DNA of 59,777 bases, the filler included, from Platydemus manokwari (lineage: Eukaryota), in NCBI GenBank assembly GCA_037951405.1. It is 5 parts of 5 records of this genome, joined end to end, with 100 filler letters (N's around TTAATTAATTAA, not from the genome) between each part and the next. Parts side by side here need not be neighbours in the genome. Positions count along the whole stretch, not along the records: positions 50,352 to 59,777 come from JBBMOY011250763.1; 4 more parts are not named here. One strand, given 5' to 3'. A program made the position numbers and the translations under genes. This document shows positions 7,470-59,777 of the stretch, in pieces. Each line of letters starts with the position of its first letter. Position 1 is the first letter of the stretch. The notes beneath the pieces were generated by a model. It saw only the letters and a list, made by a program, of their open reading frames with translations, was not told the DNA's origin and ran no database searches.

Positions 7470-8160
7470 AACAACAGCAAGAACAAGCTATAGGTATTGA
7501 GTTACTTTAATGCACAACGAAACACAATAACAGTAAGAACAAATAACGGTAAATAATAAGCAATTTCATAGCAAATGTTCAAAATCTTCACGATCTTGTT
7601 CTAAACAGAGATTGCATTGTTTCCTGAGACTTGAATAACATTTATGGACTACTTCCTGATTGATGCTTATTAATTAAGAGATTGTGTTTTCGTACGAGAT
7701 CGTTTAGATAAAACGAAGCTTCATCTGAGAAAATAATCTTTCTATGGAAATTGACATTGTTTTCGTTGATTATCCAAGAACAGAATTCAACCCTCCTATC
7801 GGGATCATATTCTCCCCATGCTTGATTAAAAGAACATTTGAAAAATTTTATTTTTTCTTCCTTAAAATATCTGCGAACTGAAATTTGTAAAGTCATACAC
7901 ACTCGTGCAGTTTCTCATTGATTTCTCATTTACAAAATTTACCACCTTTTCCTTAATGATTTCATCAGACGGTCTTCCTGATTGCAACCTAATGGATAAG
8001 TTTCCAGTTTCATCAAACTTCTGTTTTCAGTATTGCACTGTTGTCCTAGCTGGTGGTGTACGATTGAAATGTTGCTGAAATTCTTGACCAAGTTTGGCAC
8101 TACTCTGGTACACTATTGCATGGCTAAATATAAACACTCTATCCGCATGAACAGCCCATA
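7470..8160 (-). mobile_element. Degenerate, internally deleted Tc1/mariner-superfamily transposon (DUF4817-type HTH + DDE fragment)
   Basis: Minus-strand fragments read FQQHFNRTPPARTT, KFDETG, RRVEFCSWI...KIIFSDEASFYLNDLVRKHN (first catalytic D in FSDEA) and C-terminal RKQCNLCLEQDREDFEHLL*. The middle of the catalytic core is missing. A paralogous copy lies at 36300-36740. Confidence 0.8.
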
Positions 8161-14786: not shown

Positions 14787-14886
14787 NNNNNNNNNNNNNN
14801 NNNNNNNNNNNNNNNNNNNNNNNNNNNNNNTTAATTAATTAANNNNNNNNNNNNNNNNNNNNNNNNNNNNNNNNNNNNNNNNNNNN
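14787..14886. other. Assembly gap with six-frame stop linker (44 N + TTAATTAATTAA + 44 N)
   Basis: Directly visible; linker at 14831-14842. Confidence 0.98.
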
Positions 14887-30300: not shown

Positions 30301-30700
30301 GAGTGCTCGGATCTTGGGACCCAAAGAACGATGGAGTTCTCTCAAACATCAGCCTCGAAAAGGCCCAAATCACCTTCATCGTTGGATTCCTCATAGGCAC
30401 ATTGCTTAAGGATGCCTTCGCCACCTACAAGGCTCACGGGGATATGCAAAATCTCAAGCACCCATCATGGATCAGGGCCTTCAAACAACTAACCGGACGT
30501 AGCAATGATTTGAAAGAGAATCGACAAGAACCATAAGGAACCTGACTAGGAAACCTTCTCAAGGAAATATCTGAAGACTTCGGAAATGTATATATTATAA
30601 AAATGATGTGAGGACTTGCGCCACCGCATCGCAAAGATTGTCATGTTTATGTGAAATAAATTTTATCCACTACTACTTATATATTATATTGAATAAAACA
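27310..30700 (+). mobile_element. RLE-type non-LTR retrotransposon (NeSL/Utopia/R5-like) with Ulp1-like protease, RT and restriction-like endonuclease; decayed
   Basis: Protease: NNHWNL..FIDP..QLNSYDCGLF (27362-27720). RT: SSPGNDGITY, RPIAL, GCAEH, GVKQGCPLS, LAYADDIV, YLG, APAKLGGIGL. RLE: RH, LKPDLII..YIVDLK, KY, FGVLGSW. Short 3' UTR ending in AATAAA. Many stops and frameshifts. Confidence 0.92.
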
Positions 30701-30727: not shown

Positions 30728-31045
30728 TATATAAAATATACACTTAAAAATGAACACACAAAAATCCGAAATTTGTGATATAACATTTAAAGCTATTCAA
30801 GCTTCAAAAGCACATAAAAAATCTAAAAAGCATATTGCGAAATTTGTTTATCATCTACAACAGTTAAGCTTTGATCATTGTCTACAACAGAACTTCGTTT
30901 ATTTTTATGAACAACCGTTCTTTCATTATATTTCGCAATATGCTTTTTAGATTTTTCATGTGCTTTTGAAGCTTGAATAATTTTAAATGTTATATCACAA
31001 ATTTGGGATTTTTGTTTGTCCATTGTTAAGTGTATATTTTACATA
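30728..31045. mobile_element. Fold-back MITE (about 115-bp inverted arms, about 85-bp spacer)
   Basis: Arms 30728-30843 and ~30929-31045 are near-perfect reverse complements. This explains the mirror-image ORFs 30750+ and 30823-. Confidence 0.85.
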
Positions 31046-33228: not shown

Positions 33229-33492
33229 TGTTAGTAGCTGCTACTTCACTTGTAATTGATGTTTCAACAAAAGAACTCATTATAACGATTTTCTTAAATT
33301 TTATTTAATGCCAACACTTAATACAATTTTTTAAAAAAATTAAAATTCCTTTTCTAGAGAGATTTCCTTATCAAACTTGATGGGTTAAAGATAAAAAATA
33401 TTTAAATCATTTAATAATTATTTTATTTTTAACAATTTTTAAAGTTAAACTGTTAATAAAACTGTTTTAAAATAATTTTAATTTTCCTCACA
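33229..33492 (-). repeat. 3' LTR of a Ty3/Gypsy element
   Basis: On the minus strand TGTGAGG...ACTAACA directly follows the PPT AAAAAAAGGGGA (33493-33504). A homologous LTR lies at ~40953-41179. Confidence 0.75.
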
Positions 33493-34830
33493 TCCCCTTT
33501 TTTAAAATTTTTAATTTTCTCCACATTCCTTCTTATTACTGTACCATTTTTGTCTTGTAATTGGTAACTTCTTTCATGATTTTGATCCTATTACTTCGTA
33601 CCGGTCATCATATCTTTCTTGTTTTTATTTTGTACTTCCTTTTTTACAAATACCTTGTCACCTATCTTAAATTTGCTTTTTGTTATTTCCACTGATTCTC
33701 TTTTTTGTTTGTCCTCAATGTTTCATTTAATTTCTTCTCTATCTACTCTTCTGTTGGCATACCATCATGATTTATCTATCTTCCTTCCAAATATAACTTC
33801 TGGAAGACTAACATCAGTCGTTTTGTACTGTAGCGTTCAATGTATATTTGATTTCTTGTAATATTGAAACCTAGTTTGTATGCTACCTATCCTTCACCGT
33901 CGCATTTATATAGTCTCTTATCGTTCTAAATTGTCGTTTAGCCATTCAATTTATATCGTTCTGACATGGACTGGAAAATATTATATCTGTCCCCATTCTA
34001 AAAGCCATCTGTTTGATTCTTTGTGATTCAAAACATTTACCACAATCTACCTGTATTTCTTTTGGTGCACCGTTCTTCAAAACCTATTGATCTCGAATCA
34101 CTTTCTCTATTGTTTACTTATTGGTGTAAGTGATATATATCTGCTAAATTTTCTACTCTAATCGATTCTTTCCATGGTCCACAAATATCAATATTTATTT
34201 TCTCGAATGGTTTGCCTGCTAATAACAATTTCGGTTTCTCTTTCTTTGGGCTAGTTGGCACTTTCGATTTTTGGCACACCTCACATTTACTCACATTTAG
34301 TTATCTTTACCAAATCTTTCATGTCGAAATTATCTCTTATATATCGTCTTACTTTTTCAGTTCCTGCATGACACAACAACTTGTGAGTATATTTAATCAT
34401 TTCTTTTTTTTATTGATGGTATCCAAATTTTGTGCTCTTTTGTTTTTACTATGTCTTCCTCGAGTATGTAATGACCATTTCGAGTTTTTTCTATTTCGTT
34501 TTTAATCATTTCTATTTTTTTATTGTTTATTTGCCATTCTTTTCCTTCATTCTCACACATTATGGTTGATATTTTGGTTTTCATTTTCCTTTGCTTAGAT
34601 TTTCATCCTTTGTTAAGCATTGTGAACAGGTCTCACATGTGTTTCTTGTGAATAACTCATACGAGCGGAGAATATCTGAGTAATTTGTTTTTTCTAATGA
34701 TTTCATAAATTCATTTCGTTATTTGGAATTTTTTGCACGGTTTTTATTCTTGATTAGTATGCATTTTTCGTAATTGTAAAAAGCCGCATATGGTTATGCA
34801 CCAACCCAATACAATCAAATGATCGAAATC
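33493..34830 (-). mobile_element. Degenerate Ty3/Gypsy integrase region
   Basis: Motifs CEVCQKSK (HHCC), PFEKINIDICGP and PKEIQVDCGKCF (DDE core), and C-terminal SYQLQDKNGTVIRRNVEKIKNF, followed by PPT and LTR. Confidence 0.85.
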
Positions 34831-36299
34831 TTATACACTACCCGAAATTTGGTTTATAAGAAACTTAAATAAAAAATTCTGCTCTTTAAAAACATCGAAA
34901 TGTGAAAATATTTAGTTTATTTGCTGAAATTTCCCTCAACTATCACTTAGCATTAACAAATTATTCGAGTTTTTTATATTTTCCATTCTATTGATATTCT
35001 AAATGAGGAACTTACAATGCTAGTACTCTCTTAATTTGTGAGTTTATCATGGTTTGATGTTGTAGATTCCACTGATTATTGCTGTCGGTGAACATGTTAA
35101 TATCGTGATACACATGATACAGATAACGAGGAGAATAATTGTGATTTTGTATTTGTTCAAAAATTCGCACATTCGAATAAAAATCTATTTAAAACATGCT
35201 TGTCTGTTATGAAATACAGCAAGTCGGGATCAGATAATCATTATTAAGCATGTGTTAATCCAATTGAATTTAGTTTTAAATAGAAATTTTTCATTTATTA
35301 ATGAATATAATCATTAATGAAATCAATAAGGTATTGTGTAGCATTATATATAGTTATTATCGATTATGATGTTTTATAATAATTCAGTCATTGACTTTGT
35401 GATTCTTCATCGATGTTGGTTTAGATTCACTACCAAGAAGATAAAAATGATAATCCGGACAAATTTTACAACTTGTTTCTCGTGAAAAATTTAATTTATA
35501 AAATCGATAAAATTAGAAAAATTGATTTTTATGCCAATGTCATCAATGTTTGATGACATTTGAAAAAACAATAGCAGTGCAAGAGTTGTCATAGATCAGG
35601 ACATTCTATAGACTAGCATATAAATTATGATTTTTGGAATTATTATTACTGCATATACATTTAACTTTTTCATCTTAAAATATCAATACTCGACAGTAAA
35701 ACATTTCAAGCGTATTGATTTTGATTTTTATGAGAAGGAAAGTATTTTTGCAATTATGATTTGTTAATGCTTAAATTTGATTTCAGAAAGTTGTTCATTT
35801 TGAAGAATACCTAAATCAAGCCAATCTCCAAAGATACCTTAGAATTACAAAATGGATTTTAGGGACCAAATTAAATAAACATGATACTGAAGTGCCTGAA
35901 ATGAAATTTTAATTGGAAAATAGGACAGCCAAAAAAAACCCACACAGAAATTGACCAATCACATCGATGCACAGACTAATAATCCCAATAGGAACAAGAA
36001 AAAGCAAAAATCGAATTAAAATGCAATGCAAACATTACACAAAATTTGCACACATGTCTCGAGTATAAATATCGATGTGAAGATGACCAAATTCCTTTGG
36101 AATCCAAGTTTTAGTGATGTTTTCGAGTAGTACGAGTATGAGTGTATTTTTGTAAGTCGTACTGATTAGTTAGCAAGTTGGAAATTAAGTCTACAGCCTT
36201 TGAGTTTTGAATTCGGTAATTATTCGGTAGTTTAGAAGTAGAACTCAACAATATAAGGTGCGATTCATTAGGCTACGTCGTAAAAAAATAAAATAAAAC

Positions 36300-36740
36300 A
36301 ACAGTAAGAACAAAATAAATGTATTGCGTTACTTTAATGCACAACAAAATACAATAACGATAAGAACAAATAACGGTAAATGATAATAAATTTCATAGCA
36401 ACTGTTCAAAATGTTCACCATCTTGATCCAAACAGAGGTTGCATTGTTTCCTGAAGCTTGAATAACATTTACGGACGACTTATTGATTGATGTCTATTAA
36501 TTTATTTGAAATTGCTTCTTCATTTTGCTGAGCGTTGTATAATTTAAGCGATACAGATGACAAACGATGTCCATTCTCTTCAGTGTAATAAAAGAAATTG
36601 TGTTTTTGCACCAGAAAGTTAAGATAAAAGCAAAGCTTTATCTGAGAAAACAATCTTTCGATGAAAATCGATATTGTTTTCTTTGACTATCCAAGAACAG
36701 AATTCAACTACCTTTCGGCATCATCTTCTCCCAATGTTTG
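36300..36740 (-). mobile_element. Second copy of the Tc1/mariner-like remnant at 7470-8160
   Basis: Clear nucleotide similarity (e.g. TTACTTTAATGCACAAC, TTTCATAGCAA, CCAAGAACAGAATTCAAC); encodes KIVFSDKALL and CNLCLDQDGEHFEQLL*. Confidence 0.8.
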
Positions 36741-39700
36741 ATATTTCAAAATGTTTTTTTTATTATTTTAGTTTTGGAGACCGAGACTTATGAATCGCAC
36801 GATATATATTGGATATTTGCTTCTAATCACTGGATTTGTATTCTTCAACGCAAGGTGCATTTTAAATGGCTCAAATGTTTGGCTTCTTAGAAATAATGGA
36901 TTTCAAAACTACAGTCTTTAGACCCTAGAATAGAGTAGCATGCAGCATAAGCGCAAAAATTTACAAATTCTGATTCCTTTTATAAATCAGATAAACTATC
37001 AAAGCAATCAGTGACTTAAATATTTTAAAAAACCAAATAAGTATGAATGGAAAAATAAGTGCGTAATCCAGGAATAATCAAAATCTTATCTAATCTATCT
37101 CGAAACATGTATTCCTGAATCAAACAATCAATTACTTTGTTTTGTTTTAATTTTCTCCGTAAAACCATCTGTATTTTAATATAAAAACTTTCTTAGACAC
37201 AGTAAATCAGTGGAAAAAATGATTAAACATTATTAATTATAATATTAAAATAAAAATTCACTCGCAGAAAAAATATTTTGTTTATTTACGGTAATGAGAA
37301 ATATCGTTTATAGTTTCGTTGGGAGAAAGAGCTTTGTAAATATTTTTTTAATTTGTCTGGAGAAAATTGAATCAATTAAATAAACATCATCCAGAAAATG
37401 TAATGTTAATTTATTTGGGAGTATAAAAACTTTAAATATTGTTATTATTTTTTCAGTTTTTAAATACGAGTTTACAATGGAATTGTAAAGCATATTTTAA
37501 CGATCGTTTCTCTTAGGCTAGGTTGATTTTATTAATCTTGGTTGTGTTATTTTTCTAGCTCAGAGCGGTGAGTACTTGCATAACAGTACATGTTAGTAGT
37601 AGATACTTCGTTTGAAATTGATGGCTCAACAAAAGAAGTAATTGTTGCGATAAATTTAAATCCTTTTTTCAAATCTTTTTCTAGAGAGCTTTAGCTATCA
37701 AATTTTTAGATAAAAATTTTTAAATTACTTAATTACAAAATTTCAAAATTTTATTTTTTAATTTTAACTTATTATTAAATTATAAAAATTATAATTAAAA
37801 GTTTTTTATTAAAATTATAATTTTAAATTATTATTGGTTTCTTTAAATTTTTCTCACGGTACATATTTTAATGAAAGCCAGTATATCATATATAGAGCTA
37901 CTTAAGCACGTATATAAACAACCAATAAAAAATAATGTTTAAAATATTTCTATAATATTACAAATGTTCGATTTCATACAAAAATTCATACAATAAATTT
38001 ATCAAAAAAAGCTTATCAAAATAAAGACTCTTCACAAAGAAATCATTATCAAAGAAATTAAGAAAATAAATAAGAAAATAAGTACTCGCATAAATTGGAA
38101 CATTATCGAGATTGTTCACTATCGGTATTTTCGGCAAACAAAATAATAAAAATATAAAGTTCCCCGTCTAATGTTTGCAGGACATTTCACAGATAATTTT
38201 CTAGTATAAGTAGCTTATTAACTTTTATTTTATAAATTAAACAATAAAAAAACATAATTTCTACAAGACCAGATATGTTATGGATGTGTTGTGGATAATC
38301 AAATATTTCCAAGTAATTATATTCGCTTATATTCGCAGAGAATGATTCAAACGATTTGAGATAATTCTAAAAATGACTAAAAATATTATAATTTATTTAA
38401 ATAAGATTTTAACATTTTCTTTCAATGATTCATGGGGTGAGAAATAAACTGATAACAATCAATTAAGGTTCTCAAAAATTTAAATATTCATCGAGAACTC
38501 GTCAGAGCACATCTACTTAAAGAAAGTCTCCATTTGTATTTATCATTGTCATTGAAATATATACTTACATCAAAACATAGACTTATTTTTTCTCAAACTG
38601 ATATCAAACAAGATTTGACAGTAAATCCTAATGCTTTAGAACTAATTGATTTAAACATCTAGAAAAATTATAATTCAATTACTGGTCAACATAATTAATC
38701 TTTTAAGTATTTCTTATTTTTAAACTAAAATTCATTTTCATACAAACTTTATTTAAATGTTTTATATCGTTATTATTGAAGAAATTTTCTCCCTAAACTA
38801 TTCAACATTTTAGGATGGTAAATATTTTTATAAAATGAGATAACGAAAAATATTTAAAAATTTTTAAATTATTTATTTTAATAAAAGTATAAAAACTTGT
38901 CGAGATAGATGACAGAATAAACTTTCGATTAAATTCGTACTAAGAATGAAATTAAATAAAATCATCATGCTATAATGACGAAATACAAATATTAATATTG
39001 TACGATATTTTCAGGCAAGCTTGGGAAGGATTAAATATTGACAATTGAAAAACTGAAATTTTTGATAAACACCTCAAAATATTGTTTAATATTACAAAAT
39101 GTCTACATGAGTTGACATGAAAAAGATTACGATTGATCCTCAATGATCTCAATTAATTATAAAATTTTGTGAGTAGATTTTTTGTGTTAATGTTTTAGAT
39201 CTTAGATAATTGTAGATAAAAGAAGATTAGTGTTGATGATGAATTTTTTAATATTTTCGAAAGCTACAGTTGGTCTAATGATATAATCTTACGGTCCTGC
39301 TTGATTAATTGTTTGTGATATTATATGCATTCACAAAATTCGCATATATACCATGTGAAGCATATATATAAATTCAAAAAGATCATTGACCCCGTTGATA
39401 GCGGTGTTTGTTTTATGAACCAGGAGTCATCATATGATGTTGTTAAGAATTGATTTCAATAAATAAATCCTTGAGTATGTTTATGTTATTGTTAGGCTAT
39501 AAATGTACGAAGAAGGATGATGGTGAACTTGCTTATGTAGTTTAGTAATGTTGAAATGTATTATTTAGGAAAAGTCGTGTTAGTTGTTTGTAAACATGAA
39601 GTGAAATTCTAATTTTTGTACAATTAAATCTTTCTTGAACGAAAACAACCACGCCTTTTCCTTTTGCATAAAATAGTGATAGAATTTTCTGAATTTTTAA

Positions 39701-40699
39701 TTAAATAAATGAAATCCCTCTACTGAATAAGAATGTCAGTAGTAATGACTTGTACAATAGAATTTTTATAGGTTGTTATCATTTTACAATTCAAGAACAC
39801 CGTCGTTGGTACTCACAGATGATTTGATATTTTAATGCTTACGAACTTAATTTTATAAGGTTTAAGAATTTATTGTTTTTGAGACTTTGGAGTGTTTTAT
39901 TAATATTATGCGATGATTATATATATTATTATTTGACATTTGATTTCTGCTGTTATTACACTTATCATTGCGTCATCGTGAAAAAATTATAACCTATTTA
40001 TCTCTCCTAAGGTTTAACTAAATTTAAGCTAACGAACGAATTGTGTGATCTTTATCAAGGGATTATAATTATGTATTGAAAATATTTATTAGAATCCACA
40101 AATAGTTTAAGATTCTTTTCGGAAAATATTTTCTTTACAAATGATACTTCTCATATTGGGGAAGAAAATGAAAATAAAAATTGATTCTGTAGACTAATAA
40201 CTCCTCGGTAAACATCATAATTTCATATTTCTGCATCTTAAATACTTTGATGGAAACAAATTCGTAATATTGATTTCGACAATAGCAAAAATAGTTTGAA
40301 ATCATAAAAAACGGGAAATCATCGAATATTTTTAAAAGGCATTTGTTCTATTTCAATGAACTCAACTCAATTTAGAATTTAAAATTCTTTGTATTATTGA
40401 TTACTTGTTAAGTATGGATCAATTCAATTTCAACCATGTCGCAATGCCAACCGAATAAAAAAAGCACCTTTATTGCTAAGAATTTTAATAACTTTCAATT
40501 TTACGGTGAGTGAATCAAAGTCAATCCATTCTTTGATTTAGTGATTTGGATATCACGTGGCTAAACTTCACAATGATAGTTAAGACAATTAAGTTGACGT
40601 ATATGGTAATGGTTAATAATAAAATATGTGATATTATCTCCACGTGTGATGAAAATTCAAATTAACTAAACAGATCACAATGGTATCCCAACATTAAAG

Positions 40700-41179
40700 T
40701 AGATAAAAAAGAAATTAAACAAAACATTGAGGATAAGCAAAAAAGAAAAAGGATGAAAATAACAAAATGCAAATTTTAGACAGGTGATAAGGCATTGGTA
40801 AAAAGGATGTACGAAATAAAAACCGAGAAAGTAATGATAGCTCGTAAGAAGTAATAGGATCAAAATCATGAAACAACTTGCCAATTACAAGACAATAATG
40901 GTACAGTAATAAGAAGGAATGTGGAGAAAATTGAAAATTTTAAAAAGAGGGATATATGAGGAAAATTCAAATTAACTAATTATAATTTTAAATAAAGATC
41001 TTTAATAAAAAATTAATAAAAGATGTTTTAATTACAATGATAAATTTATAAATAAAAATTATTATTTTAAATTTTATATTGGATTGTTATTAAAGTGTTT
41101 AAATATTTTTATCTATACCTGATTAAGATTGATAATGAAATCTCTCCAGAAAAGGAATTTTAATTTGTTGAAAAATTGT
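40700..41179 (+). mobile_element. Ty3/Gypsy 3' end (integrase C-terminus, PPT, LTR start), same family as 33229-33700; cut by gap
   Basis: QLQDNNGTVIRRNVEKIENFKKR, then PPT AAAAAGAGGGA, then an LTR matching the 33229-33492 copy (GAAATCTCTCCAGAAAAGGAATTTTAATTT). Confidence 0.8.
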
Positions 41180-41279
41180 NNNNNNNNNNNNNNNNNNNNN
41201 NNNNNNNNNNNNNNNNNNNNNNNTTAATTAATTAANNNNNNNNNNNNNNNNNNNNNNNNNNNNNNNNNNNNNNNNNNNN
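41180..41279. other. Assembly gap with six-frame stop linker
   Basis: Directly visible; linker at 41224-41235. Confidence 0.98.
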
Positions 41280-42200: not shown

Positions 42201-45200
42201 CTAACTTTTATTGAGAGAAAAATCATCTTCGGATTCTTTTGATTTCATTAAATCGAGAATTTCCTGAAATAAATTTACCCATCATGAAAGACAAAAATAA
42301 CTATTAATGAAAATCATCATAATTAATTTTTCTGTTCGAGTATCGATTAAAAAATCATCAATAGAAAGTGAATGGAGGAATGAGATTCAATATTCAATAG
42401 CCTACTCAATATCCTTCTTGAACCGGGCTCTTAAAATCACGATCGAATGATTTGTGAAAGTGTATTCAGATCTATCTTGATATTTTACAGCAGTTAATGG
42501 ATTTTATCAAATAATAAGTTCACAGAACAATATATCATGAGATTTTATAGTTTCATTATTTCAATGAGAATAATAGAAGTGAAATAATATATTCCATGTG
42601 ATTATGGTGAACTGTTTTATAGACATCGGAAAAAATATTATTCCAAAAATAATCGTTTGAAATATATGTTACTTATGATAGAGGAAAACCAAAATAGTTA
42701 TATATTCTGTACTATTTTAGTCTCAAAACAAGAAAAATTGGTCGTGTTGAAGACTCTGAAAAATTGTTATTTTTTGACAAAGCCAAGAATAAATGAACCT
42801 TCAATTTACTTGAAGTATTTTCAAATTCAGTTAATCTCACAGGCTCTTGTGGGATAAATTAAACAATCTTGATTTACAATGTTTATACAAGGATGAATTA
42901 AACATTATTTATCACCTAATTACTATAAGATACATTTCATAATATAAGCTATTCCTTCTTACTCGTTTAAAGGTATATGATCTTCAGATCGCATTAAAAG
43001 AAAATAATCTATCAAGAACTGAAAACCAATAATATTCTGGTTATTCAAGCTAGCAATATCCTAAGTAAGTCCAATGTTATATATTATACGCTGTTTATTT
43101 TACTCGTTATTCGTATAAGATCAGAAATGAAATTCGACAAGGATTAAAATATTATTTTGAAAAACAAATTTTAAAAAGCACTTACATCTCTATAAATTGT
43201 TTGTTCCGAAGAAAAATAAATTTCCAACGATAAAAGCTTCGGCTCCAAATCTCTTGATTGATAAAAAGCCTTTTTAAGGGCTTGACAAATGGAAAAAGGT
43301 CCAAACCAATGACCAGGATTACAACCGCTATAGCGGATTATGCGATGGATGGAAAAAGGATTCGTCACCTTATCGAAATCACCGAACCATTTAATAATTT
43401 GATTGTGAAATGCTTGATCCTTTGGGTCAGTGCTGAAAAGATGGTATAAATAATATTGGTTAACAAAGAATCTAAAATAAAAATTAAAAAAAAACCAAAG
43501 GAAAAATTATTGTAAAACTTGATTATAAGAAATAATTTCGAAAGACTTTATCTTATTCTAATGATTGGTTGAAGAAGTAAACAGGATCTATCCTTAATCC
43601 TGACATATATACTTCATTCAAGATCATAGAATCGAAATTGGTATGCAATTCACTTACATATTCACTATAGATTCATTAAATGTGAAATGAAACATATTAT
43701 AAGTCAATTTGGGAAACTTTCGTTTTCGATATTTTGCCGATGTGCTTCTTCATTTCAAAATACACTTATCTGATTTTTCTAAAACTTCAAATCACATGTT
43801 ATTCTTCAATCATTCAATTCAAGCAACTTGTATTCTATTTTGTTCATAGCTACCAAATGAAGTAATAAAATTACAGAGGAAACACAGGTCTGATAAGTAA
43901 TCATCATATAATTAATTATCCAAAACAAGTAGTACGATTAACAATTCCAAGTATATTCAATGGTAAATAAATATCACCAGAATAATCTTGCATAAATATC
44001 GTAATTCTAGTAAAAGTACTTCGATTATTTTTTACAGAACAACCAATATATAAGACGAATTTATCCATATTCAAATATTTACCATGTAACATGGTGGTTT
44101 ACAATTCAAATGAATACATTCTAGTAGCCAGTTTTGTTACTTTTATTGAAATATTTACAACTAAAATCGGTTGAACGAGAGTATCTTTAATAAAATGCAA
44201 AGGTACTTTTAATCAATTTAAAGATCATTAAGTACAATAACGTGTCATTCAACAGTACACGTTAACGGCCTTCTGACAGATTATGTGAACAATATATTCA
44301 GACATACGTAAATATAATTGATCACGAGTGCCTATTAATTAAAGCGATCCTAAATGCTTAAAGTAACTGCAAATCATACTTGTTAAATCGCAACGATTTA
44401 TCAAATTCCTCTCAAATAAGAAAGCATAACAGCGTCGATAGCATAAAAATGTAACCAACATGCCCAAAGTGTCACTCCTTTAACATTCTCTTGTGAATGA
44501 AATTTAAAACGAAGTATTCATAAAAAGTGATAAATGTATATTTACAAAAATACTCCAAATTATATAAAATATTAATCTCAGTTAAGGGAAACAGAGATCG
44601 TACTAAGAACCGCTTAAAAATTCCCGCTACCAGTTTTGTGGAGAAACATCAAAGTAGATATAAAAAAGAATAATAACAAGATCAAAATATATCATTGTTG
44701 AGAAGGAAATGATTTTTAATATTAAATATTTTTGCATCAGCACAAATAATATGAAATATATTTTTACCATAAATAAATACGGCATAGACAATTTGAATTT
44801 TTCATAAATGATTTCATGGCTGAAAATAAATTTCAATTTTTTTTAAAAATTTTTAATTTTATAAATCAGTCAACTTTAAATATTATAAAAATATATTGCA
44901 ATTTGTTTAAATAATTTCAAGGAAAATGGACTTATTAATCCTAAAATATTCGAGTTGGCCATGTCATAGAAGGCAACCAAGCCTATTGGTGATTATTAGA
45001 ACTGATAAATTATTTATTTTTTGTGGAAGAGAGTATAATAGTAGACCAAATAAAAAGTACTAAAATATATGTTCATAAATATATTTATAAATAATAAAAA
45101 AATTCTTCGAATAGACGTAATCAATACCTGGTTACAGATTCACTACTATTATAAAAGTAAGAATCAAATTTAACTTCATCCAATTCCATTTTCTGATTTA

Positions 45201-47514
45201 TATTGTTTATAAATTTTTACAGAAATTACCAAAAAGAAGATTTTACAATTTTTACAAGACGATACCTTAGTTATCAGAATTCAACATTCGGACTTCCTTC
45301 GAAAACCAAATCAACCTTAGCGATCTATTTAGTAGACAAAATAGACGAAACACTATGGAAAAGAAAGTACTAACTACTAAGTGAAAAGTAAGTTCGAAGA
45401 CTATTTATCTACTTCTGATAACCCAAAGCCTTAAATGAATCTTCAATTAAGTAAAAGGACAAAAAGAATTTAAGACGACATGGACCAGGCAATGGAAAAC
45501 TTTTTCTGACTAGCATGTCTTCATAAAGTCTAGAAGATGGCCGAAATGAAGATCGAATGAACAAAGGAAAAGAACAACCTTACAAAGACATCGTATTTAG
45601 CCATAACCATGGAAACTTTAGAAACCTTAAAGTAAGAGATACGACCTAGCCAATCTAGAAAATCCTTCAAGATAAAGCAATGCAATCAAAATAAATAAAA
45701 TAAAATCTAACTAGAAATATCATCCATCCGAAAGAATAAAATAAGGAAACAAAAAAGCAAATAAGCACACACTTGTGCTTCTTGAATAGTTCTTGAAATA
45801 TAAGATCGATTTCTTTAATTTCAGCATCTTGAAGAAAGGACGTAAAATTCAACGACAAACTTATATTTTCTACTTCTCATCTGACACCTGTATAGGCAAT
45901 TAGCAATGAGAAAAACTTTTAAAATAATATTATTACATGCTGGGTTTGTGTTTGAAATTATGGGGGAAAACAAATAAATGAAGAAAACAAACACAATCGC
46001 TAGCTACAGATGGCTATAAAATTGACAGGACATCTGTCTTACTAATAGAAAAACCAATGATTATTCGCATATTAATATTAGAATATGATACTTAAAATAA
46101 TCGAAGATATCGGATAAATCGGAACAAGTGCTTTCAAAATCCAAAGAAGTATCATAGCCAATACTTAAGGTTATAAGCTGATCATTAAGATTTCTACTTT
46201 TAGAATCAATGTCTAAGAGTTTAATTACTTCATCGATATGGAATCTAAAATAAGTAGCTACCTAACATTTTTAACAATATCTCACTGAAATCCAAATACG
46301 CAATAGTGCAATAGATGATTGAATTCTATTCCAATTCCGTTGTATTGTCAAAAATTTACTTCGTTTGTTGCCTTTTTTTATGAAATAAAACAACAAATCA
46401 AATTATCAATGAAAGTTATTGATTAAATTGTGAATCTCAAATACTACCAAATATTCTCGAAATAGATATCAATAATCAATTTTTCGTTTCAAACTACTTG
46501 GAACAATAATCATTGATTGGATACTTCTTCTTTCTTCAAACAAGCACATTGGAATGAATTTCTCGTTCTTAAATGATAGAAGCAACAATTGCAGAATGGT
46601 TACACCATAACATGATTGGTTATTGAAATACCATTTGTAGATTTCAAATATTATAATCAACAAATTATCACAGAGATCATTTCAGATAATTATATAAAAA
46701 ATCCAACTAAAACCACATAAATCGATGAGAAAGATATTTCAATTCACCAAGCAATCGTAAAACTTTCAAATTCTTCTCAAATTTATTCAATGAAACATTT
46801 TGTCTAACAATCGGTGCAATTTAAAGGACAAATCGATCTACTATTTATAATATTGCCATTGGCAACAAAATTATGAAACTAGGTCAGTCATTGACACCAA
46901 TCCATCAAAATAGTGTGTTCTAATAATTCCAAATAGAATTCAGAAATTTTTGAAAAAGAAACCAATTCATGATTAATTGAAAAATGGTCAAGAAGGTAAA
47001 ATCTATTTTTATACCTTGTTCGATCCCAAGAACGACCAAGAAAGTGCATTGTGAGACCTTGTGCCATTAGCATTTGACCCGATCGTATCATACAACCCCA
47101 ACCAGCATCCGAGGAACGCAACACAACTGGAACAGGCATGCTGGATAATTTTGGACATGGTAACAAATTGAAATTTTCCCGATAAGTAAACCAAAATCGA
47201 CTGACAAAATCCTGCATAAATTCTTTCTTTCCCATCAGATTGGCATAGCTGATGTCTGGAAATGTCAACGAAAAATCAAATATTAAATGGATCTTAATAG
47301 ATCCAGAATAAAGCGTACTGTTAAAGAAATATTTTTTCCCCAACAAATACACGGATTTATTAGAACTGATTTGTGTTTTTATTTTTAGCCAGTCTGCGAT
47401 ACGTATGGAATAGAATTTGCGATTCAATTTATTCAACAAAACCACACTGAATTCTTTCATGGCATCAGATCCTCGCCGACGCATTTTGGGATTTTTATTA
47501 ATATTATTTTCCAT
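42201..47514 (-). pseudogene. ATG4: ATG4C/D-like cysteine protease (peptidase C54); 5' exons intact, 3' catalytic region degenerate
   Basis: Recognisable motifs: KSVYLLGKKY, FVSRFWFTYRENF and SDAGWGCMIRSGQMLMAQGL (catalytic Cys). Exon ~43184-43470 reads HNQIIKWFGD..PFSIHRI..GHWFGP. Region 42880-43140 holds only broken remnants (KINSV*, IIGFQ) with no YLDPH. A possible acidic last exon EILDLMKSKESEDDFSLNKS* lies at 42201-42263. Confidence 0.8.
45350..45800 (-). mobile_element. Possible decayed tyrosine-recombinase (DIRS/Ngaro/Crypton-like) fragment
   Basis: Only weak remnants: CAYLLF...LRMDDI, PLF, and FKALGYQK*INSLRTY. Confidence 0.2.
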
Positions 47515-47786
47515 CTTGCCGGTTTGGTTCTCTTAATAACAATATCAATAAATCATTTGTTTAGCAGATTTTCGTTTGCTCTTAGACAAAGGTATTCTGG
47601 AGAACCGATATAATATTGAGTACAAAATATTTGTGATAGAAAAAACTGATTATATTAAAAGTGAAACATTCTACGAAATTGATAAAGTAAATGGATTTCT
47701 TTGTTGTACAGACTTCCACGATGGAATTTTTTATTTTTAATAATTTTTATTTTTATAATTGTCAATTATAATTTAAATAATGAGAC

Positions 47787-50251: not shown

Positions 50252-50351
50252 NNNNNNNNNNNNNNNNNNNNNNNNNNNNNNNNNNNNNNNNNNNNTTAAT
50301 TAATTAANNNNNNNNNNNNNNNNNNNNNNNNNNNNNNNNNNNNNNNNNNNN
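50252..50351. other. Assembly gap with six-frame stop linker
   Basis: Directly visible; linker at 50296-50307. Confidence 0.98.
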
Positions 50352-51703
50352 TAAATCGATGGCAAAACGTGATGGCAAATTTTTATTTACAATTTTGTCC
50401 GCGAACTTTATTTACAACCTAATATTAACATTTTATTGAAATGTTCTTATTTCAAGAACTAAAAGAAATAAAAATTAAAAAAACCAAAACATATTGAAAA
50501 TCTCATGATAATTATCGTTCTTGATAGCAATATACATAAAAACGTCAATATATACTTGATTATGAGGTTGTGATGAATTTTATAAATTAAAGTGAGTGAA
50601 TAAACTTTTATTACTGAAATCTGTCATTTCTGATAATTAGCGAACTCGAGTGTCAGAAATTAACTTTAAACGACGTTTAATTTATCTAGCTTATAAATTG
50701 ATTATTAAACTATCAATATTATAGCAAAAATATAATCAATTTCAAATAAATAAAAGTAAATTAGAAAAAATTCTAAATTAACAAATCACAAATAAAAAAC
50801 TACATTGAGCAAATTTCTACATTGATAAAGAAAATTATATCAAAAATGCGTAGGCATAGCGTTTAATTCTTTGTCTTCCCCTATGGATATTGTGGTTATC
50901 AGATTTTAATCAATGTTCCAATTGAGAATTATTAAAAGGAGTTAAACAATGTGGTTGTTATCCAACAAGTTTCTTGTAAATTACTAACCAATTAGAAACG
51001 AGTTTTAATGACAAAGAGTTGCATTTACTTTTATGAAAATACTCAGAGAATACTAGAACAAAGAAGATGACAAGCGAAAATTAGACTAAACATTAAATAT
51101 CAAAAGAATTTATCGAAGGAAAGAGACAAAAAATAATTGGATATAATAACTAAGTTAAACTATGAAATTCAACTGAAAAAATAATTTTTGTAGCGTTTCT
51201 AATTTCATCCAGCAATTTTTCAAATTAATATTATTTATTAAATTAAAGTAAATATTTATTAATTTCTCTTAAAAAGCGAATACGGAAATAAATATTTCTT
51301 AGGATAAATTTTTATTGTAAATTAATTCCTATCAGTAAATGTGGAAACAAGTTGTGACGAATAATATTCCATGACTTGTGGTAATACTTTAAACTATTTA
51401 AGCTTCCCGAAGGATTTCTACTACAATACCAATATTTTTAGATTGATTTATTTACATTAAAGTCATCTGCAAATCTAAAAATTTCCATATATATATTGCA
51501 GATTTCGATTACTACGGCAAGACTAATTTTGTCACAGAAACAAATATTTTTCATCTTGCTTATTCTTTTGTTCATCTTAGAATACAACACACACTGATAC
51601 CTGTTTCAAACATACCTTCGAGTTGTTTTTAAAAAATAACAAAATTTTATTACAAACAATACTATTTCAATTATACAAATTGGTTAACACAATGAATATA
51701 CAA

Positions 51704-54143
51704 TTATTGATTCAATAAAATTCTCTCCAATCCAGATATGCGATTTTCTAATTCATTAATTTTCAAAATTAATTCATCTTCAGAATTGTTACGCATCTTC
51801 AATACTTCAATATGATTGTTTAAATGAGTAGTATTAGTTATCCCATTTGACTTTGAATTATCATTAGTGTCACTAGTTTTGTCACCGTTTACAACTTTTG
51901 AAATCATATTTAATTCTAAAAATATAAACGTTTAAAATTTAAATGTTTCAATTTAAGTCATACCATCAACTGCAATTGTACAAGTGCCACTCTTTTCTAA
52001 AATTGAAGTTAAAGATCCTTTCATTTGTGATATCAAATCAATAACAAATTTGTCCTTATTAATACGTATAACTTGCATTCCAAATTCATTTATATCGTCA
52101 CTAAGTCCGATAATATGACTAAAAATATCAGTTGCATGAACCCAAGCTTCCTTCTTTATATCAACATTTAATTGACAATGAAGAGCTAATCCAGGATTAG
52201 CTACTAGTTGATCATCAACATTTAGCAACATTTTATAATCAACCCATTCATCATTCCCATAATCAATGAAAAGTACGTGAATCTGAGGAGCATCGACACG
52301 TTTTGCTATTACTTTAGCTCGGAAAAACTCTGCATCTGACCCTGATATAATAAAAGGGGCAATAACTGCTTGGTTGACTTTTATCTCATCTAAGTTCTTA
52401 AATGGTGTACCATTATAATTAATATTTATTTTTTCTTGAATATCTGTCAGTGTTTTAAAAAAATCATCACGGCTAACTTGGACATAGAAATTAATGGGAG
52501 ATATAAAATGTGATACAGATACTTTATACGCTTTCCCAACAAAATCATTGAAATCGAGATCAATGTATTCAAAATCTTTTTTATGTGGTAAGTCAAATGT
52601 CACAATATATCTATTATTTCTTTTATATTGAGCAATAATAAACTGAGTACAATCTGCATTTAATGACTTTAGCAATACATCATCAGCACAAGATACAGAT
52701 TTATCTAATTCACAACTAATTGCATATGGTGGATCACTTTTGTGAATATCTTCCGGTGTATAGAGATTATCAATATTCACGTTGCTAATTTTTTCACCTG
52801 TATCAATTAATTGTATGTCAAATGAAAATAACTGCCTTCTTCTAATTAATGAACGAAATAATTGTGGATTATTGGAATTTTTTTTTTCATAAATGCAAAT
52901 ATCCCCTGGTGTGGGTAAAACAAATGGAGATTTCTTATTCTTCAGAATAACTTGGCGAATTTCTTGAAAATTAAGTACAAAATCATTTTGATTTTTATAC
53001 AAATATTTGGGAAAAGATGCATTTGAAACTTTCCCAGGTTTATGAATTGGAAGATCGTCGAATTTGATCGAAAATTTCTCTCTGATAAGTGTTTTGTGAG
53101 TCTGAATATATTTTTCTACTATTTCCTCTTCGTTTAAGAATAAGTTAACCAGTGGAACATAGTCATTAACAAATTCACCGAGCCAATATATTTTAACAAC
53201 CTTACCTTCTGACTCTTTCATAATAAATGACTTTAATTCGCTAACATCTGGACAGCCAAGTGATAATTTCAAAAATTGTTTAGGATATTGTTGCAATATA
53301 CCATTGGGTATTAATTTAATATCCCTTACTATATCTCCTGATGTACCCTCATCGACGAAAGCCACTTTGTAAGATCCGTCTTCCAAAATATCTAATAATT
53401 CTGCTCGATAATAACAATCATCTTCCCACTTTGCAAGATAGAAACTATGTATTTTTGGATTATCTACTGCTACCAAATTAGATTTTTGTGCATTTATTTT
53501 AGAAAGTGATTCGGATATTTCGATTTTTGAATTTTCAGTCAATTTTATTGGTCGCGCATAAATGTAATCAATATTATTTAACTCAACTATTTCTACTTCA
53601 ATCAGTTCCTTCATTTTTAGTTTGATATCATTTAATTTAACTTCATTATTTATAAAAGATGGTGGACTACTAATAATTTTGTTTTGCAAACCTCTACCTC
53701 TTCCTACATTTGCAAATCGAACGGAAACTTCTTGGTTATTTAATTGAGTTCTAGGACTATTCCCTCGTATATTATTACGCATTTGAGAATTTTCCATTCC
53801 TTCTAAACACTTTTTTGAAATAGAGGCCTTAATGGGATCACCAAAGGCATCGGAATTATCAGCTATTCTAACTGCTTCCAAAGCTTCATCTGCTGTTTTA
53901 AAGCCTACAAAGCTGAATTTATCGTAAAATAACATAGTAGAACTAAATGATACCATAGTTTCTGATTTTCATTTCGTCTATCGTCAATTATTTTAACTTT
54001 TAATACATTTCCTGCCGACGAAAATAAATTTTTGACCACTACCTATCAAATCATATTTCACTACATGCATACAAAAAACATTAACATACCTCACTAATAT
54101 TTTTGGGCAAATTAGTTAAAAACACATCACATGTAGAATCCAT
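51704..54143 (-). CDS. RRM + three Tudor domain protein with C-terminal coiled coil (TDRD/Vreteno-like), 767 aa
   Basis: Exons 54090-54143, 53954-54042, 51964-53912 and 51704-51915 are all GT-AG, in phase and stop-free (2304 nt). RRM: VFLTNLP (RNP2) and LCFVGF (RNP1). Tudor cores: YYRAEL..VAFVDEGT, LFRSLI..IQLIDTGE and FFRAKV..VLFIDYGN. A GRGRG motif lies between RRM and Tudor 1. Confidence 0.92.
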
Positions 54144-54959
54144 TTTTGATTACTACAGTGCGCTGATTAAAACAATTATCAAATTATGTTTACTAACATT
54201 AGAATATTATATACAAATTTCTGAAATAATTATCCAAAACTAAATTTTCTTTGCAATTAAATATTTTTGAAATAAGATTGAAAAAAAATTAATTGTGCAA
54301 ATTTTTACTTATCTTTTTCTTCCGAAATTATAGTTGAACCCTAAAAATGAAATTATTCCAAAAATGAACAAAACATTTATAAATTAATGTCGTAATATTC
54401 ATTTTTGAATATCCACTGCCTACTTAAACTAATTTTGGTATTTATTCCAAGCTTCGGTGATCTCAATTCATGTAATCACGATTTTAAGTTGACTTAATTT
54501 AGTAATACTGTAATTACACTGATCCTGCATAAATTAAAGTAAATAATAATTGAAATTACTTTAAGCATGTTCAAACAAGATATAAAGGAGCTGTAAAGAA
54601 GGTCTTCAATTATTTTAAATTAAATTAAAATTGGAAATCTTAATCATGCAAATTGCATTTCATTATAGAGATTTTGATAGTTAGTTTTAAGTTTATGAAG
54701 TTATTTGTGAAACTATGTGATGGCAAATAATATTGTTTGGATTCGGTTGTTTCAAACTCTCATGTTCTGCATTAATTCAATCCAAAAAAGTATGTTCGAC
54801 TTTATTTAAATTTGAAGTTTGTTATTATATGAAACAAAACTCTCGAAACCAATTTAATACTCTTATTTATGTAACCCCTCAGTCTACAAATCACTTCAAA
54901 TAAAGTTGCATGGTTAATCGAGACCACTTAGGTAATTAAGTGTATTTACATTCAAATAT

Positions 54960-55835
54960 GAAAGTAGCTGGTTGTAAATTGTAAATAAAATCATTCATAA
55001 GTCTCAAATCTTAAAGAAATCAGAGAATGAATAGGTTATATACTTAATAAAACCAAAGAAGATCCAAATAAAGACAATTAAGGTTTTAAAAGAAGGAATG
55101 CTTTCTATAATTTAGAAACCACATTCACAGAAATATATCCTTTGCAACAGCCATTTTGATTTTTTAAAGGTTATAGTAGATCGTTATATCTAATGATGAT
55201 TAGGTTAACTTTAAATATAAGTATAGTTATTAAGAAAAATTTATAAGACAAAAGGAGAAGAAAATTGACTATTAAGTCATTAAAATTTTGTATGTTAAAG
55301 TTAACTTTAAGTTCCCAGAATGAATTAAGCTCATTAGAAAGATAATATATTGACAAACCGAATCAGAAAAATTATTAAAATAGATATTCAAATTTTATTA
55401 TTATTCCAAAAAGATCAGTATTTATTAAAAAAAACAGACCAAAATATATACTAGTAGGATTCAAAGGTGACATCGAATGTACAGAAAATAACTAAAAACT
55501 TATTCAGATAATCGGTAATAACTAAATTAAATCATTAAGAGTAAAATTAAATAATTCCAACTATCCAATGAATAACATGCAATTTGATATAACAAACAAT
55601 AATCAAATAAATCGTATTTAGTTTATGTCAATTTATTCAAAGAATTTAAAAACAAACCACAATTAAATTTGTTAATTTTCGAAAGTTATACTCAAAATAT
55701 TTTGCTTTGATGTTACTGCTCAAGATGAAACATTAATAATACATATATGTAATGTAAATATAGAAATTGAAGATGATTTTGATTTAGAATGTAAAGCTTA
55801 TTGTTCTATATTAGAAGAAAAAGCCGTCTGAATAT
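54960..55835 (+). mobile_element. Polinton/Maverick (adintovirus-like) major capsid protein pseudogene
   Basis: Broken frames give, in order: N*GFKRR..F...YPL..PF*FFKGY, NRPKYILVGFK (55433), IKSLRVKLNNSNYP, KPQLNLLIFESY, IFCFDVTAQDE and AYCSILEEK. This is the motif order of the Polinton double-jelly-roll MCP. Confidence 0.75.
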
Positions 55836-55839
55836 TAAT

Positions 55840-56394
55840 TAAAGGGTGAAGATGTATACTATTCAAGACAAAGTTTGATATTTTTATTTAAAAAATGCTT
55901 TTAACGCCTTTTAAATGTTTTCATTTAAAAAATTAGTGACGATGAAAAACTTTTAAAACAAATGGTTAAAAACAAAAACCCAAAATCATTTAATTATAAT
56001 GGCGAAAGCATAAAATTAATTAAGGAAACTATTAATGAATTAAAAAAATTGACAATGAAATATATTGTAAAAAACAAAAAGAAGGTGGTTTACCTTCATT
56101 ATCAGCATTATCAGCAATTATAACATGTTTAGGTGGAGCTGTAGGTATCGCTGAATGAGTTAAAACTGCTGTAAACCAAGAAAAACATTGCTAAGAAAGC
56201 AGTCTTAGAGAGTAATAAAATAAAAGAAGAATTGAGATAAATAAAACAAGAAAACACTGGAGCTAAAGAAGTTGGCATCCAATTAAATCATTTTGAAGGT
56301 AAAGCTTTAAAGAATTTTACAAAAAAACGCTAGTTATGAAAAATCACCATTTCGAAAACATATGAAAGGTGAAGGAATTTATTTATCATCATAT
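55840..56394 (+). mobile_element. Polinton/Maverick pX-like (GG[F]LP) virion-associated ORF remnant
   Basis: EGGLPSLSALSAIITCLGGAVGIAE*VKTAVN at 56081, then GIQLNHFEGKAL and MKGEGIYLSSY; lies directly downstream of the MCP remnant. Confidence 0.65.
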
Positions 56395-59300
56395 ATATTG
56401 AGAATAAGGAAGAGATATTTAAGAAAATATTCATTAAAGGGCTTCTTAACAAGAGCTGCAAATTTGGATTAAAGCAATTGAACCCAAAGAATATAGATAA
56501 AGTTGTCAGTATTATCAAGGAAGATACTGATGTATCAAAGCCATAATCCGAATATTTGGATATGCCGTGGGATCTGATACATATAAAATCAGACCAAAAG
56601 GACATTATTAGCAGATAAAAAGCTGAGAATTTAAGGCTCAAGCAATACATAGCCAAATTAAAAGAGCGCCGAAACTCTTCGAAAATCAGATTGCAAGAGA
56701 AATCAATGGAGGACCTAACTAATTTCAAATGTAAACAAAAAGGACATTATGCTCGTTTTTGTAAGACAATTGAATGTTTTCGATGTGGTGATCCCCATCT
56801 GCAAAGATTCGGTGGTACAGATATCAAGAATGTCAAATACTTAAATACCGAAGAAGGAAGTATTATATCAGAAGAGGACAATGTCTAGAGCTTAGATATA
56901 CTTTCTGAGAAATGTTGTAATATGTTGGATATGGGTGACTGGAAACAAGTTAAGCCGAGAACGCCTAGGCACAATCAATTCAATTCGATCGAAGACAATT
57001 ATGCACAGTTTGTGAATGGTCAAGGAGCTAAACCAAGCCGAATGTACACAAAAGCAGATACGGTTATAACGAATCAAAGACCAGAAAAGGCACAAAATAA
57101 ACCAATAGTCGATTATAAAGTTGAAGATGAGAAAGCGAAGATACTATTTGACACGGGAGCTGTGCTTAATGTAATCAGCAAAGATTTAGTCAATGGACTA
57201 ATGAGAAAGGATGATTCAATCTAAATGAGGAGATCTCCTAACAAAATTAGATGTGCAAATGGATCAATAATAAAACCTTCAGGACAAGTTTATTTAAGAG
57301 TTGTAATTGGTACAGAAGAAATATTTCATTATTTTGATGTAGCGTTAGAACTATTCGCAGAATGTTTCATTGGAATACGTTATATGAAGAAGGATGGAAT
57401 TTCAGTCGTAAATGTGTAAGAATTGCATTAAAATAAAAGAGATTGAGATACCTTTTGTTCCTAAAACTCAAATAGAATCTTTAAACTGTTAGAGGTCGGG
57501 TTCAAAGGTCGGAATGCGACGGAAGTAGAAGAGAAGATCCAGAATAATAAACGAGTAATGTTTGCGAATGGTGTGCTGTTGGTAGATGGTGATTACTTTG
57601 TAAAAGCTATGGTTGTTGACGGAAATAGCAGAAAAGTAGATAGTTTTTAGGAGTATGTGTTTGTAGTAAATAAGATAAATATAGTGGAGAGGGATTTGAT
57701 TATAGCCAATTCGTTGCTTTAAGCAAATAACGAATATATTTTGAAAATGTTGCAGGAAATTGAGAATGGCAATAAAAAAGTTATACTGGAATGAATTTAG
57801 GTTGGGTAGAAGTATCAAATGAAATAAAGGGGGAGAACATTGGGAATTCAGTTGGGTGGTATAACTTATGTTCCCAAAAGAGAGAAAGTTAACTAGATGA
57901 AATATTAAAAAACATTGAACAGAACTTAGATGATAAACTGAATCCTGAGGATAAGAATAAACTTATGAGGGTTTTATCTTTATTACAGAAATAGTTTTAG
58001 TACAGGTCCAGAGGACTTAGGAAAATGCGAGATAGTGAAACATAGTATAAAAACAAACATTGATCAACCAATAGTTGTCAAACCTCGCAGAATTCCAGTG
58101 AGGTTAGAAGAAGAAGTTAAACATCTAATAGATGGAATGTTAGAATCAAAAGTTATTAGTCCAAGTAATTCAGCATGAAATTTCCCAATAGTGCTAGTCA
58201 AGAAAAAGGATGGAACGACCAGAATGTGGGTAGATTATAGGGAACTAAATGCAGCTACCTCCAGCCCAATTTTCCCTATACCAAATTCTGAAGAAATATT
58301 CGATGCTGTACAAAGAGCCAGATATTTTTCAACAATAGATTTGGCGAACGGATATCATCAAGTTGAATTGGAGGAAGAAGCAAAAGAAGAAACAGCATTC
58401 AGCACTAGATACCGACAGTTTCAGTTTAATCGAATGCCTTTTGGATTATGTTCAGCACCTGATACTTTTCAGAAACTTATGAATGTGTTATTCAAGACTG
58501 AAAATTGGACAAACTGTAATCTATCTAGATGATATTCTGATATTTGGAAGAACAGTCAATGAACACAATGAAAAGCTGAAAAGAGTTTTAAATCGAATCA
58601 ATGACTCCAAAAAATTTTTTTTTCTTAAGAAAAGAAATTAAGTATCTGGGACACGTGATTGACGAAAAGGGCATACGAACGGAAGAAGACAAGCTTGGGG
58701 TAATGCAAAATTGGTTAAAACTTCAATGTGTCAAGGAACTACAGGAACTTCTGGGATTATGTGTTTATTATAGGCGGTTTATAAAGAATTTTGCTGGTAT
58801 TGCCCAACCGTTATACCAATTACTGAAGAAAGAGAATAAATTTGAGTGGAACTATTTAGCAACTGCATCTTTTCACAAATTGAAGACATCATTAATTTCA
58901 CCTCCAGTTCTAAGTTTACCATGCAAAGAAGGGAAATATGTTTTGGATACTGATGCATCTTTCAGTGGTATAGCAGCTGTGCTTTCTAAAGTACAAAACG
59001 GTAACGAACGAATAATAGCGTATAGATCAAGAATATTGACGAAAGCGCAGCGTAAGTATTGTATAACAAGAAAAGATTTGCTAGCTATCCATGTTTTTGT
59101 TAAGAAATTTAAACACTACCTACATGGTAAGAAATTTATTGTCAGAATTGATCATGTAGTTCTGAAATGGTTGCTGAATTTGGATTCTCCGAATATATCG
59201 CAATATTGTATATTTTAAATGGAAATAGAATATAGAAAAGGTAAAGAACACATCAATGTAGATGAGATATCATGACTTCCACATTGTCAACAATGCTCTA

Positions 59301-59440
59301 TAAAGCATCAAAACCCACAAAAAAGGTGTAATATAATGACGGACTATGATAAAAGCGATTGATTGTGTCGAGTGGAACAAGACAAGTTTTTAGATCAGAA
59401 TAAAGGTGTAGAATTGAAAATGGTGATAAATGCAATTCTC
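56395..59440 (+). mobile_element. Degenerate Ty3/Gypsy LTR retrotransposon (gag zinc knuckles, protease, RT, RNase H)
   Basis: Zinc knuckles FKCKQKGHYARFC and CFRCGDPH; protease LFDTGA; RT VLVKKKDG..VDYRELN, TIDLANGYHQ, RMPFGL and YLDD; RNase H VLDTDAS. Stops and frameshifts throughout. Confidence 0.92.
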
Positions 59441-59455
59441 AGCGGAGTGTCATAG

Positions 59456-59777
59456 TGTTGGGGAAATGGCAAATTCAAAAACAATCCAATCCAAAAAACA
59501 ATAGCAATATTTTCCATTCAATCGAGATCAAAATTGTCTCGCTTTACTGCATAAAAACATTTAATACTGATGTATAATGTAGTAATTTATAATTGTAACA
59601 ATTTTTATAAATTGGTGTGCATCATGTATCAATTTTTGGGCTTGATTATTCAAGCATTAATTTTTGTAGCAATTTTGTGTAAAGCTTGTTTAATCAAGCA
59701 TTGTATTTTATTTTTAATAAATTTTTATAATCAAGCTTCTGGATGATTTGTTGAATCATTGAAAATAATAATAATAA
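59456..59777 (+). repeat. Possible LTR start (TGTTGGGGAAATGG...) running off the window end
   Basis: TGTTGGG start and an abrupt composition change after the pol fragment; the other end is not in the window. Confidence 0.25.

Follow-up and report, generated by a model that had tools for sequence, protein, structure and literature searches.

Polintons (Mavericks) are virus-like elements known to occur commonly in planarian flatworms, and copies with capsid genes have already been published from this group. Table S1 of PMC4028283 lists four Polintons from Schmidtea mediterranea, namely Polinton-1_SM, Polinton-2_SM, Polinton1_SM and Polinton2_SM, and marks the capsid as present in three of the four, the fourth cell being blank. 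These elements are 11.6–15.9 kb long and carry penton and ATPase genes, and two of them also a protease gene. Maverick expansion has contributed to genome growth in Dugesia, according to the accessible part of 10.64898/2025.12.11.693146, and planarian Polintons/Mavericks are silenced by SMEDWI-2 piRNAs, according to the accessible part of PMC8532177. Adintoviruses, as described in the portion of PMC8502044 at hand, combine a double-jelly-roll hexon with a gene containing a pX-like segment, and the same portion reports degraded endogenous adintovirus copies, one of them on human chromosome 7. Erosion is common in vertebrates as well: the available text of PMC8097293 states that stops, frameshifts and insertions have eroded 96% of 3,511 mapped vertebrate Maverick loci and that many of these have no terminal repeats.

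The locus described here lies in a window of 59,777 nt, by which we mean the whole stretch of DNA that was analysed. It is very probably what is left, about 1.5 kb in all, of a now dead Polinton/Maverick element (polintovirus, adintovirus-like) whose host is planarian-like. Like the Schmidtea Polintons it comes from a planarian and bears a gene for a major capsid protein, but it is a broken 1.5-kb piece instead of a long element with penton and ATPase genes. Its eroded state is that of the vertebrate Mavericks in the available text of PMC8097293; there, however, the host group is different, and PW and protease genes adjoin the capsid gene. No description of the locus or of its capsid clade was found in the literature searched, which included few subscription papers and not Repbase. 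The locus itself is a new dead copy, and alone it matters little: Polinton copies are as a rule decayed, and planarians are already recorded as hosts.

The capsid pseudogene

The well-supported part of the remnant is a pseudogene for a major capsid protein of the double-jelly-roll type at 55013..55852 on the + strand. A phmmer query made by translating window positions 55031–55870, with X at stops, was run against 1.84 billion proteins. It retrieved 40 matches at E ≤ 0.001, 12 of them at E ≤ 1e-10, with a best E-value of 1.2e-28. These 40 proteins carry neither names nor genomic context. A Pfam scan covered 21 of them; PF21738 (double jelly roll) was above its cut-off in all 21, and a giant-virus or virophage capsid family in none. 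We take PF21738 to be a family that covers Polinton capsid proteins; the Pfam text itself says only 'double jelly roll-like domain'.

We built a capsid profile of 414 columns from 19 of the matches, after removing the rearranged P0029. In the window this profile found one domain, at 54833–55852, with 136 bits, and the well-supported part of the gene corresponds to columns ~134–409. A frameshift-aware search, which had been suggested earlier for the reconstructed capsid, gave a score of 161.2, whereas 200 resampled sequences scored no higher than 25.5 and the second-highest peak of the window reached 31.6. Moreover, hhalign aligned the fossil with the profile over 324 columns (probability 99.78, E = 4.2e-28). 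The profile scores are partly circular, the profile having been made from matches to the same query, a caveat that does not touch the phmmer E-values or the Pfam labels. For the capsid part, a chance similarity is excluded.

Other searches returned little. The fossil itself had no match in Pfam, nothing meaningful among PDB sequences (ACE alone came up, with E-values from 0.33 upwards) and no hit among the 148 candidates of a word-seeded protein search, and the capsid family profile had no real match among PDB sequences either. Prokaryotic genomes yielded 41 pattern matches, none of which was confirmed as a relative, and no relative was matched among phage records. In a tree covering 25 of the 40 matches, the fossil groups with seven unnamed proteins, with support of 100/99. 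Its terminal branch is 1.56 against a median of 0.52, a length that fits decay. Six short unnamed database proteins (P0007, P0013, P0014, P0018, P0022 and P0025), which align with different stretches of the fossil at 44–67% identity, may stem from further decayed members of this capsid family.

Strong homology starts at ~55013–55052, and tblastn of the matches starts at 55013. Upstream of this, the gene probably extends weakly over 54833..55012 (+), that is, back to ~54835. Columns ~74–99 fall at 54839–54910 in the same frame, and the extension scores 14.6 bits, a value that resampling attains 5 times in 500 and shuffling 2 times in 1000; columns 76–99 in particular are only weakly matched. 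Columns 1–~73 are undetectable, the best score for columns 1–75 being reached by 406 of 500 resamples. The start at 54960 given in the initial annotation is an unsupported boundary.

The same annotation had read four capsid motifs by stitching together short broken frames. All four are indeed present, at 55436–55465, 55526–55567, 55697–55729 and 55796–55819, but they need no stitching: each lies in window frame 2 of the + strand, and they are divided only by stops. Frame 2 contains 12 stops in 280 codons, compared with 33 and 32 in the other two + frames. When each stretch is counted in the frame in which it matches the capsid, there are 8 premature stops in 263 codons. For positions 55609–55683 it is frame 1 that gives the better match to the profile (24.1 bits, a score reached by none of 1000 shuffles), and therefore the capsid gene also contains frameshifts there. 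Since the longest stop-free piece in the capsid frame is only 51 aa, an ORF track would miss the gene, as had been supposed.

The downstream pX-like gene

Downstream of the capsid pseudogene, the + strand holds what appears to be a broken pX-like core-protein gene of ~150 codons at 55959..56394, recognized with a profile of a Lottia protein family. It consists of three ordered pieces: 55959–56045 in frame 3, 56075–56185 in frame 2 and 56350–56394 in frame 1. The second piece bears a GGLP motif and a hydrophobic Gly/Ala segment, and the third a single G.GIYL motif. This region had been described as one ORF in which a GGLP-hydrophobic-GG..GIA stretch is accompanied by G.GIYL repeats. The first two elements are there, with GGLP at 56084 and GGAVGIA at 56132. 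The single ORF is not, as the three pieces occupy a different frame each (3, 2 and 1) and stops occur among them. Nor are there repeats: G.GIYL occurs once in the downstream region, at 56368–56385, and a possible earlier copy near 56268, judged by eye, is degenerate.

The Lottia family was reached through one of the capsid matches, P0037, a single record that contains both a capsid and a pX-like sequence in the same order as in the window. The tail of P0037 retrieves 47 shorter proteins, 46 of which are hypothetical proteins of Lottia gigantea, and together they represent a multi-copy animal family. A GGFLP-like motif is present in 29 of the 47 and a G.GIYL-like motif in 18. The Lottia proteins (P0037 and P0041–P0087) share with the window the order of an N-terminal segment, a GG-LP-type motif with a hydrophobic Gly/Ala stretch, and a C-terminal G.GIYL-type motif. 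They are nevertheless distant: pairwise BLASTP of two of the window pieces against P0066 gave no alignment. The capsid linkage in P0037 suggests that the Lottia proteins are located inside Polintons.

The Lottia-family profile scores 38.7 on the downstream gene, whereas the 200 resamples that served as the null did not exceed 22.1 and the best peak elsewhere in the window reached 28.3. Scores of the individual pieces 1–3 were reached by 9, 0 and 4 of 1000 shuffles, respectively, for regions picked after inspection, and hmmsearch with the same profile gave E = 0.07. On these profile scores we are moderately confident that the three pieces correspond, one after the other, to a limpet protein family that contains a pX-like segment, and a small possibility of chance attaches to this part of the locus.

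The link from this family to adenovirus pX is softer and would run indirectly, via the Lottia proteins. Adeno_PX (PF05829) is matched by 23 of the 47 at E ≤ 0.1, all of them under the 25-bit cut-off, and in the atlas the top cluster for the family (score 0.91) has Adeno_PX in 20% of its members. The window pieces themselves matched nothing in Pfam, PF05829 included. An adenain-type (M/I/L)xGxG motif occurs once, at 56362 in the third piece, where 0.07 would be expected by chance, and is found in just 11 of the 47 Lottia-family proteins. The GGLP site falls outside the adenain consensus given in the accessible parts of 10.1101/341131 and PMC7998265. The pX-like accessory genes of adintoviruses in the available portion of PMC8502044 are PLA2X and GasderminX, whereas the gene here resembles the Lottia family instead, and neither a PLA2 nor a gasdermin domain was detected in it. 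In the accessible part of its supplement, PMC8502044 does not name a planarian or Lottia element, and the part of PMC11161782 at hand holds nothing on pX or planarians. GGFLP was not met among the papers listed in the literature search; its use as a family name comes from the initial annotation.

A bold and rather improbable reading is that the remnant marks an undescribed capsid clade: it groups with the seven unnamed proteins and has a capsid-plus-pX cassette in common with limpet elements. As the clade to which the fossil belongs is invisible to Pfam at such a level of decay, the intact proteins P0001–P0006 are useful for finding and classifying planarian Mavericks.

The Gypsy junction and competing explanations

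On its right side the Polinton piece abuts the remnant of a Ty3/Gypsy-type LTR retrotransposon at 56395..59430 (+), both ends of which are approximate. A zinc knuckle, an aspartic protease, RT and RNase H follow one another in the Gypsy order (Pfam zf-CCHC, a weak gag-asp protease, RVT_1 and RT_RNaseH). The start at 56395 is where the knuckle-bearing frame reads back to, approximately, and where GC content changes from 0.23 to 0.29–0.37. On the gag side, at 56319–56888, only weak zinc-knuckle matches were obtained, and the junction position is without database support. Neither an integrase core after RNase H nor an LTR pair was found, and 54000–59777 has no blastn repeat elsewhere in the window. 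As the remnant is cut short and the window stops at 59777, the neighbour could formally be BEL/Pao rather than Ty3/Gypsy.

A Gypsy insertion at ~56395 had been proposed as the event that interrupted the viral element. The Gypsy remnant does abut there, with no N gap at the junction, but a clean insertion is not what the junction looks like: no LTR pair or integrase core was found, and the Polinton piece is joined to the inside of gag, an arrangement not expected from a clean insertion. The simplest course of events would be that Gypsy inserted and that a later deletion removed sequence across the junction. Less likely, though a possibility of some weight, is that the order was reversed, with a Polinton piece entering a Gypsy element already in place or recombining with it, or that the join is an assembly artefact. 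The absence of an LTR at the junction suits this reading, as does the fact that the window is pieced from short contigs with four N spacers, whereas the junction itself has no N gap. Stop density is higher in the capsid gene (8 in 263 codons versus 10 in 809 for Gypsy), a weak hint that the Gypsy element is younger than the Polinton piece; however, the difference is not significant (Fisher p 0.056), and the Gypsy part is GC-richer, which lowers the rate of stop formation. A reversed order or an artefact would alter how the locus came about but would leave the capsid gene's identity as it is.

Judging from its family (PMC4028283 and the accessible portion of PMC8502044), the parent of the Polinton remnant would have integrated by means of an RVE integrase and replicated with a protein-primed polymerase. 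It would have built an icosahedral capsid from the double-jelly-roll protein, with the pX-like protein packed in the core and cleaved by an adenovirus-type protease. After insertion, neutral decay may have reached ~0.15–0.2 substitutions per site, according to a crude stop-count simulation with which 0.1–0.4 is compatible. The left part of the element would then have been lost and its right side joined to the inside of the Gypsy gag. At present the piece is most likely repeat DNA without another role, and it may be a piRNA target.

Structural comparison bears on whether a different virus could have left the remnant. The predicted fold of P0002, one of the intact matches (pLDDT 84.2), matches capsid proteins of mavirus, grouper iridovirus, PBCV-1 and Sputnik at E ~1e-14. 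Its many further matches include entries for adintovirus, MELD-virus and adomavirus; identity in the structural matches is ~10%. The fossil's own model of 272 residues (pLDDT 74.9) is confident mainly in the second barrel. Foldseek returned no match for it at E ≤ 0.001, but capsid or scaffold proteins with a double jelly roll filled the top eight rows of a VIA search (best Z 9.5, rmsd 4.4, 228 aligned). Structure prediction, which had been put forward as a check, points to the expected double jelly roll.

The predicted fold alone cannot tell Polintons from other double-jelly-roll viruses. Matches to mavirus, iridovirus, ascovirus and adomavirus LO7 are as good as those to adintovirus and MELD-virus, the family-defining polymerase and integrase are not seen, and a pX-like protein is also described for adomaviruses in the accessible part of 10.1101/341131. 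We nevertheless consider it improbable that the remnant derives from another integrating double-jelly-roll virus, be it a Polinton-like virus, a virophage, an adomavirus-like virus or a giant virus. The Polinton assignment follows from the PF21738 matches (21 of 21 scanned, as against none for giant-virus or virophage capsid families), from the neighbouring gene, from the known elements of the host, and from the atlas. There P0005 is placed with PF21738 and with animal clusters (TM 0.81–0.88) before virophage and giant-virus clusters (TM 0.78). Moreover, the pX-like genes in the available text of PMC8502044 belong to animal adintoviruses. The phmmer search, PF21738, the profile, hhalign and the models all uphold the original idea of a fossil virion module of Polinton/Maverick type, with a pX-like gene behind a double-jelly-roll capsid gene.

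Among the 156 ORFs of at least 58 aa in the window, a set that shorter decayed pieces would escape, none was recognized as pPolB, integrase, ATPase, protease or penton. A host Tudor gene blocks the left side 690 nt away, so there is no room on that side for the missing genes; on the right, they would lie beyond 59777, where the window ends 3.4 kb on. An rva_4 match considered as the integrase has E 0.065 and reaches 13.4 bits where the cut-off is 26. It coincides with the capsid reading, though in a different frame, and is attributed to chance. Among the 25 longest of 250 inverted pairs, none brackets the locus as terminal repeats. The end motifs AGTAGT, ACTACT and CTCTCT are absent from 54000–59777, where two AGAGAG matches are internal. 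Absence of terminal repeats and end motifs is expected for an internal fragment. Since neither a terminal repeat nor a gene for polymerase, integrase, ATPase, protease or penton was found in the window, full Polinton membership is not established. The division of adintoviruses into Alpha and Beta classes rests on PolB, which is absent at the locus.

Domestication, with the capsid or the pX-like gene now serving as a host protein, is very unlikely. A host gene lies close by and the capsid homology is still strong, but the capsid gene has 8 premature stops and frame changes, with no stop-free piece longer than 51 aa, and the pieces of the pX-like gene fall in three frames. Interrupted by stops and shifts of frame, neither gene can encode its protein. 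Least credible of all is that the motifs arose by chance in AT-rich DNA. The GC content is 22% and the fossil itself is without a Pfam or PDB match, but for the capsid phmmer reaches E = 1.2e-28 and none of 200 resamples or 1000 shuffles comes near.

Host genes and other repeats in the window

The locus lies on the last of five joined parts of the window (50352–59777), which as a whole is AT-rich animal DNA; the region of the fossil has a GC content of 22%. The long ORF to the left of the fossil belongs to a Tudor-domain gene (Pfam) that is part of the host and not of the element. This Tdrd1-like gene spans 51707..54143 on the – strand and has short introns, as mapped by tblastn of its exons. 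Its product is 60% identical to Tudor domain containing 1 of Schmidtea polychroa, a resemblance from which we infer that the host is a planarian. The start codon is at 54143 (an ATG, as checked), ~690 nt from the first capsid-like codons, and the two genes stand head to head. Proximity of the remnant to the start of this piRNA-pathway gene (<~700 nt) is the basis for a speculative and rather improbable role: it might have been kept as part of the promoter, or might be a piRNA source that ties expression of the gene to Polinton silencing. If it were a conserved part of the Tdrd1 promoter, the remnant would matter more.

Identical spacers (44 N, 12 bases, 44 N) mark the four joins, at 14787–14886, 25798–25897, 41180–41279 and 50252–50351. 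Rfam had no match in the window, and no tandem repeats were found in 50352–59777. A bacterial promoter scan, a method not meant for an animal genome, stayed at chance level.

Other genes in the window include exons of an ATG4-like cysteine protease (Peptidase_C54) at 43174–43506 and 46891–47532 (–) and an exon of a trypsin-family protease at 24154–24495 (–). A decayed non-LTR retrotransposon occupies ~27400–30540 (+), with RT at 28365–28943. Upstream of this RT, at 27560–27766, there is a weak Ulp1-protease match below the cut-off (E 0.0047). It was considered as the protease of the viral element and rejected, being 27 kb and two spacers away and beside the non-LTR RT. The Ulp1-RT-endonuclease layout presumably recalls elements of the NeSL type.

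An inverted repeat pair at 33328–33778 and 40667–41175, 80–87% complementary and ~7 kb apart, possibly represents two copies of one repeat. As candidate termini of the viral element these repeats (33328–41175) were discarded, since they lie on another contig and do not flank the locus. A near-perfect hairpin at 30728–31045 has 116-nt arms (93%), each with a weak zinc-finger match. The + strand match to HTH_50 at 15797–15994, weak and below the cut-off (E 8.7e-05), is perhaps a transposase remnant. Finally, a dispersed repeat is present in two copies, at 7457–7791 and 36284–36708, with 87–88% identity.
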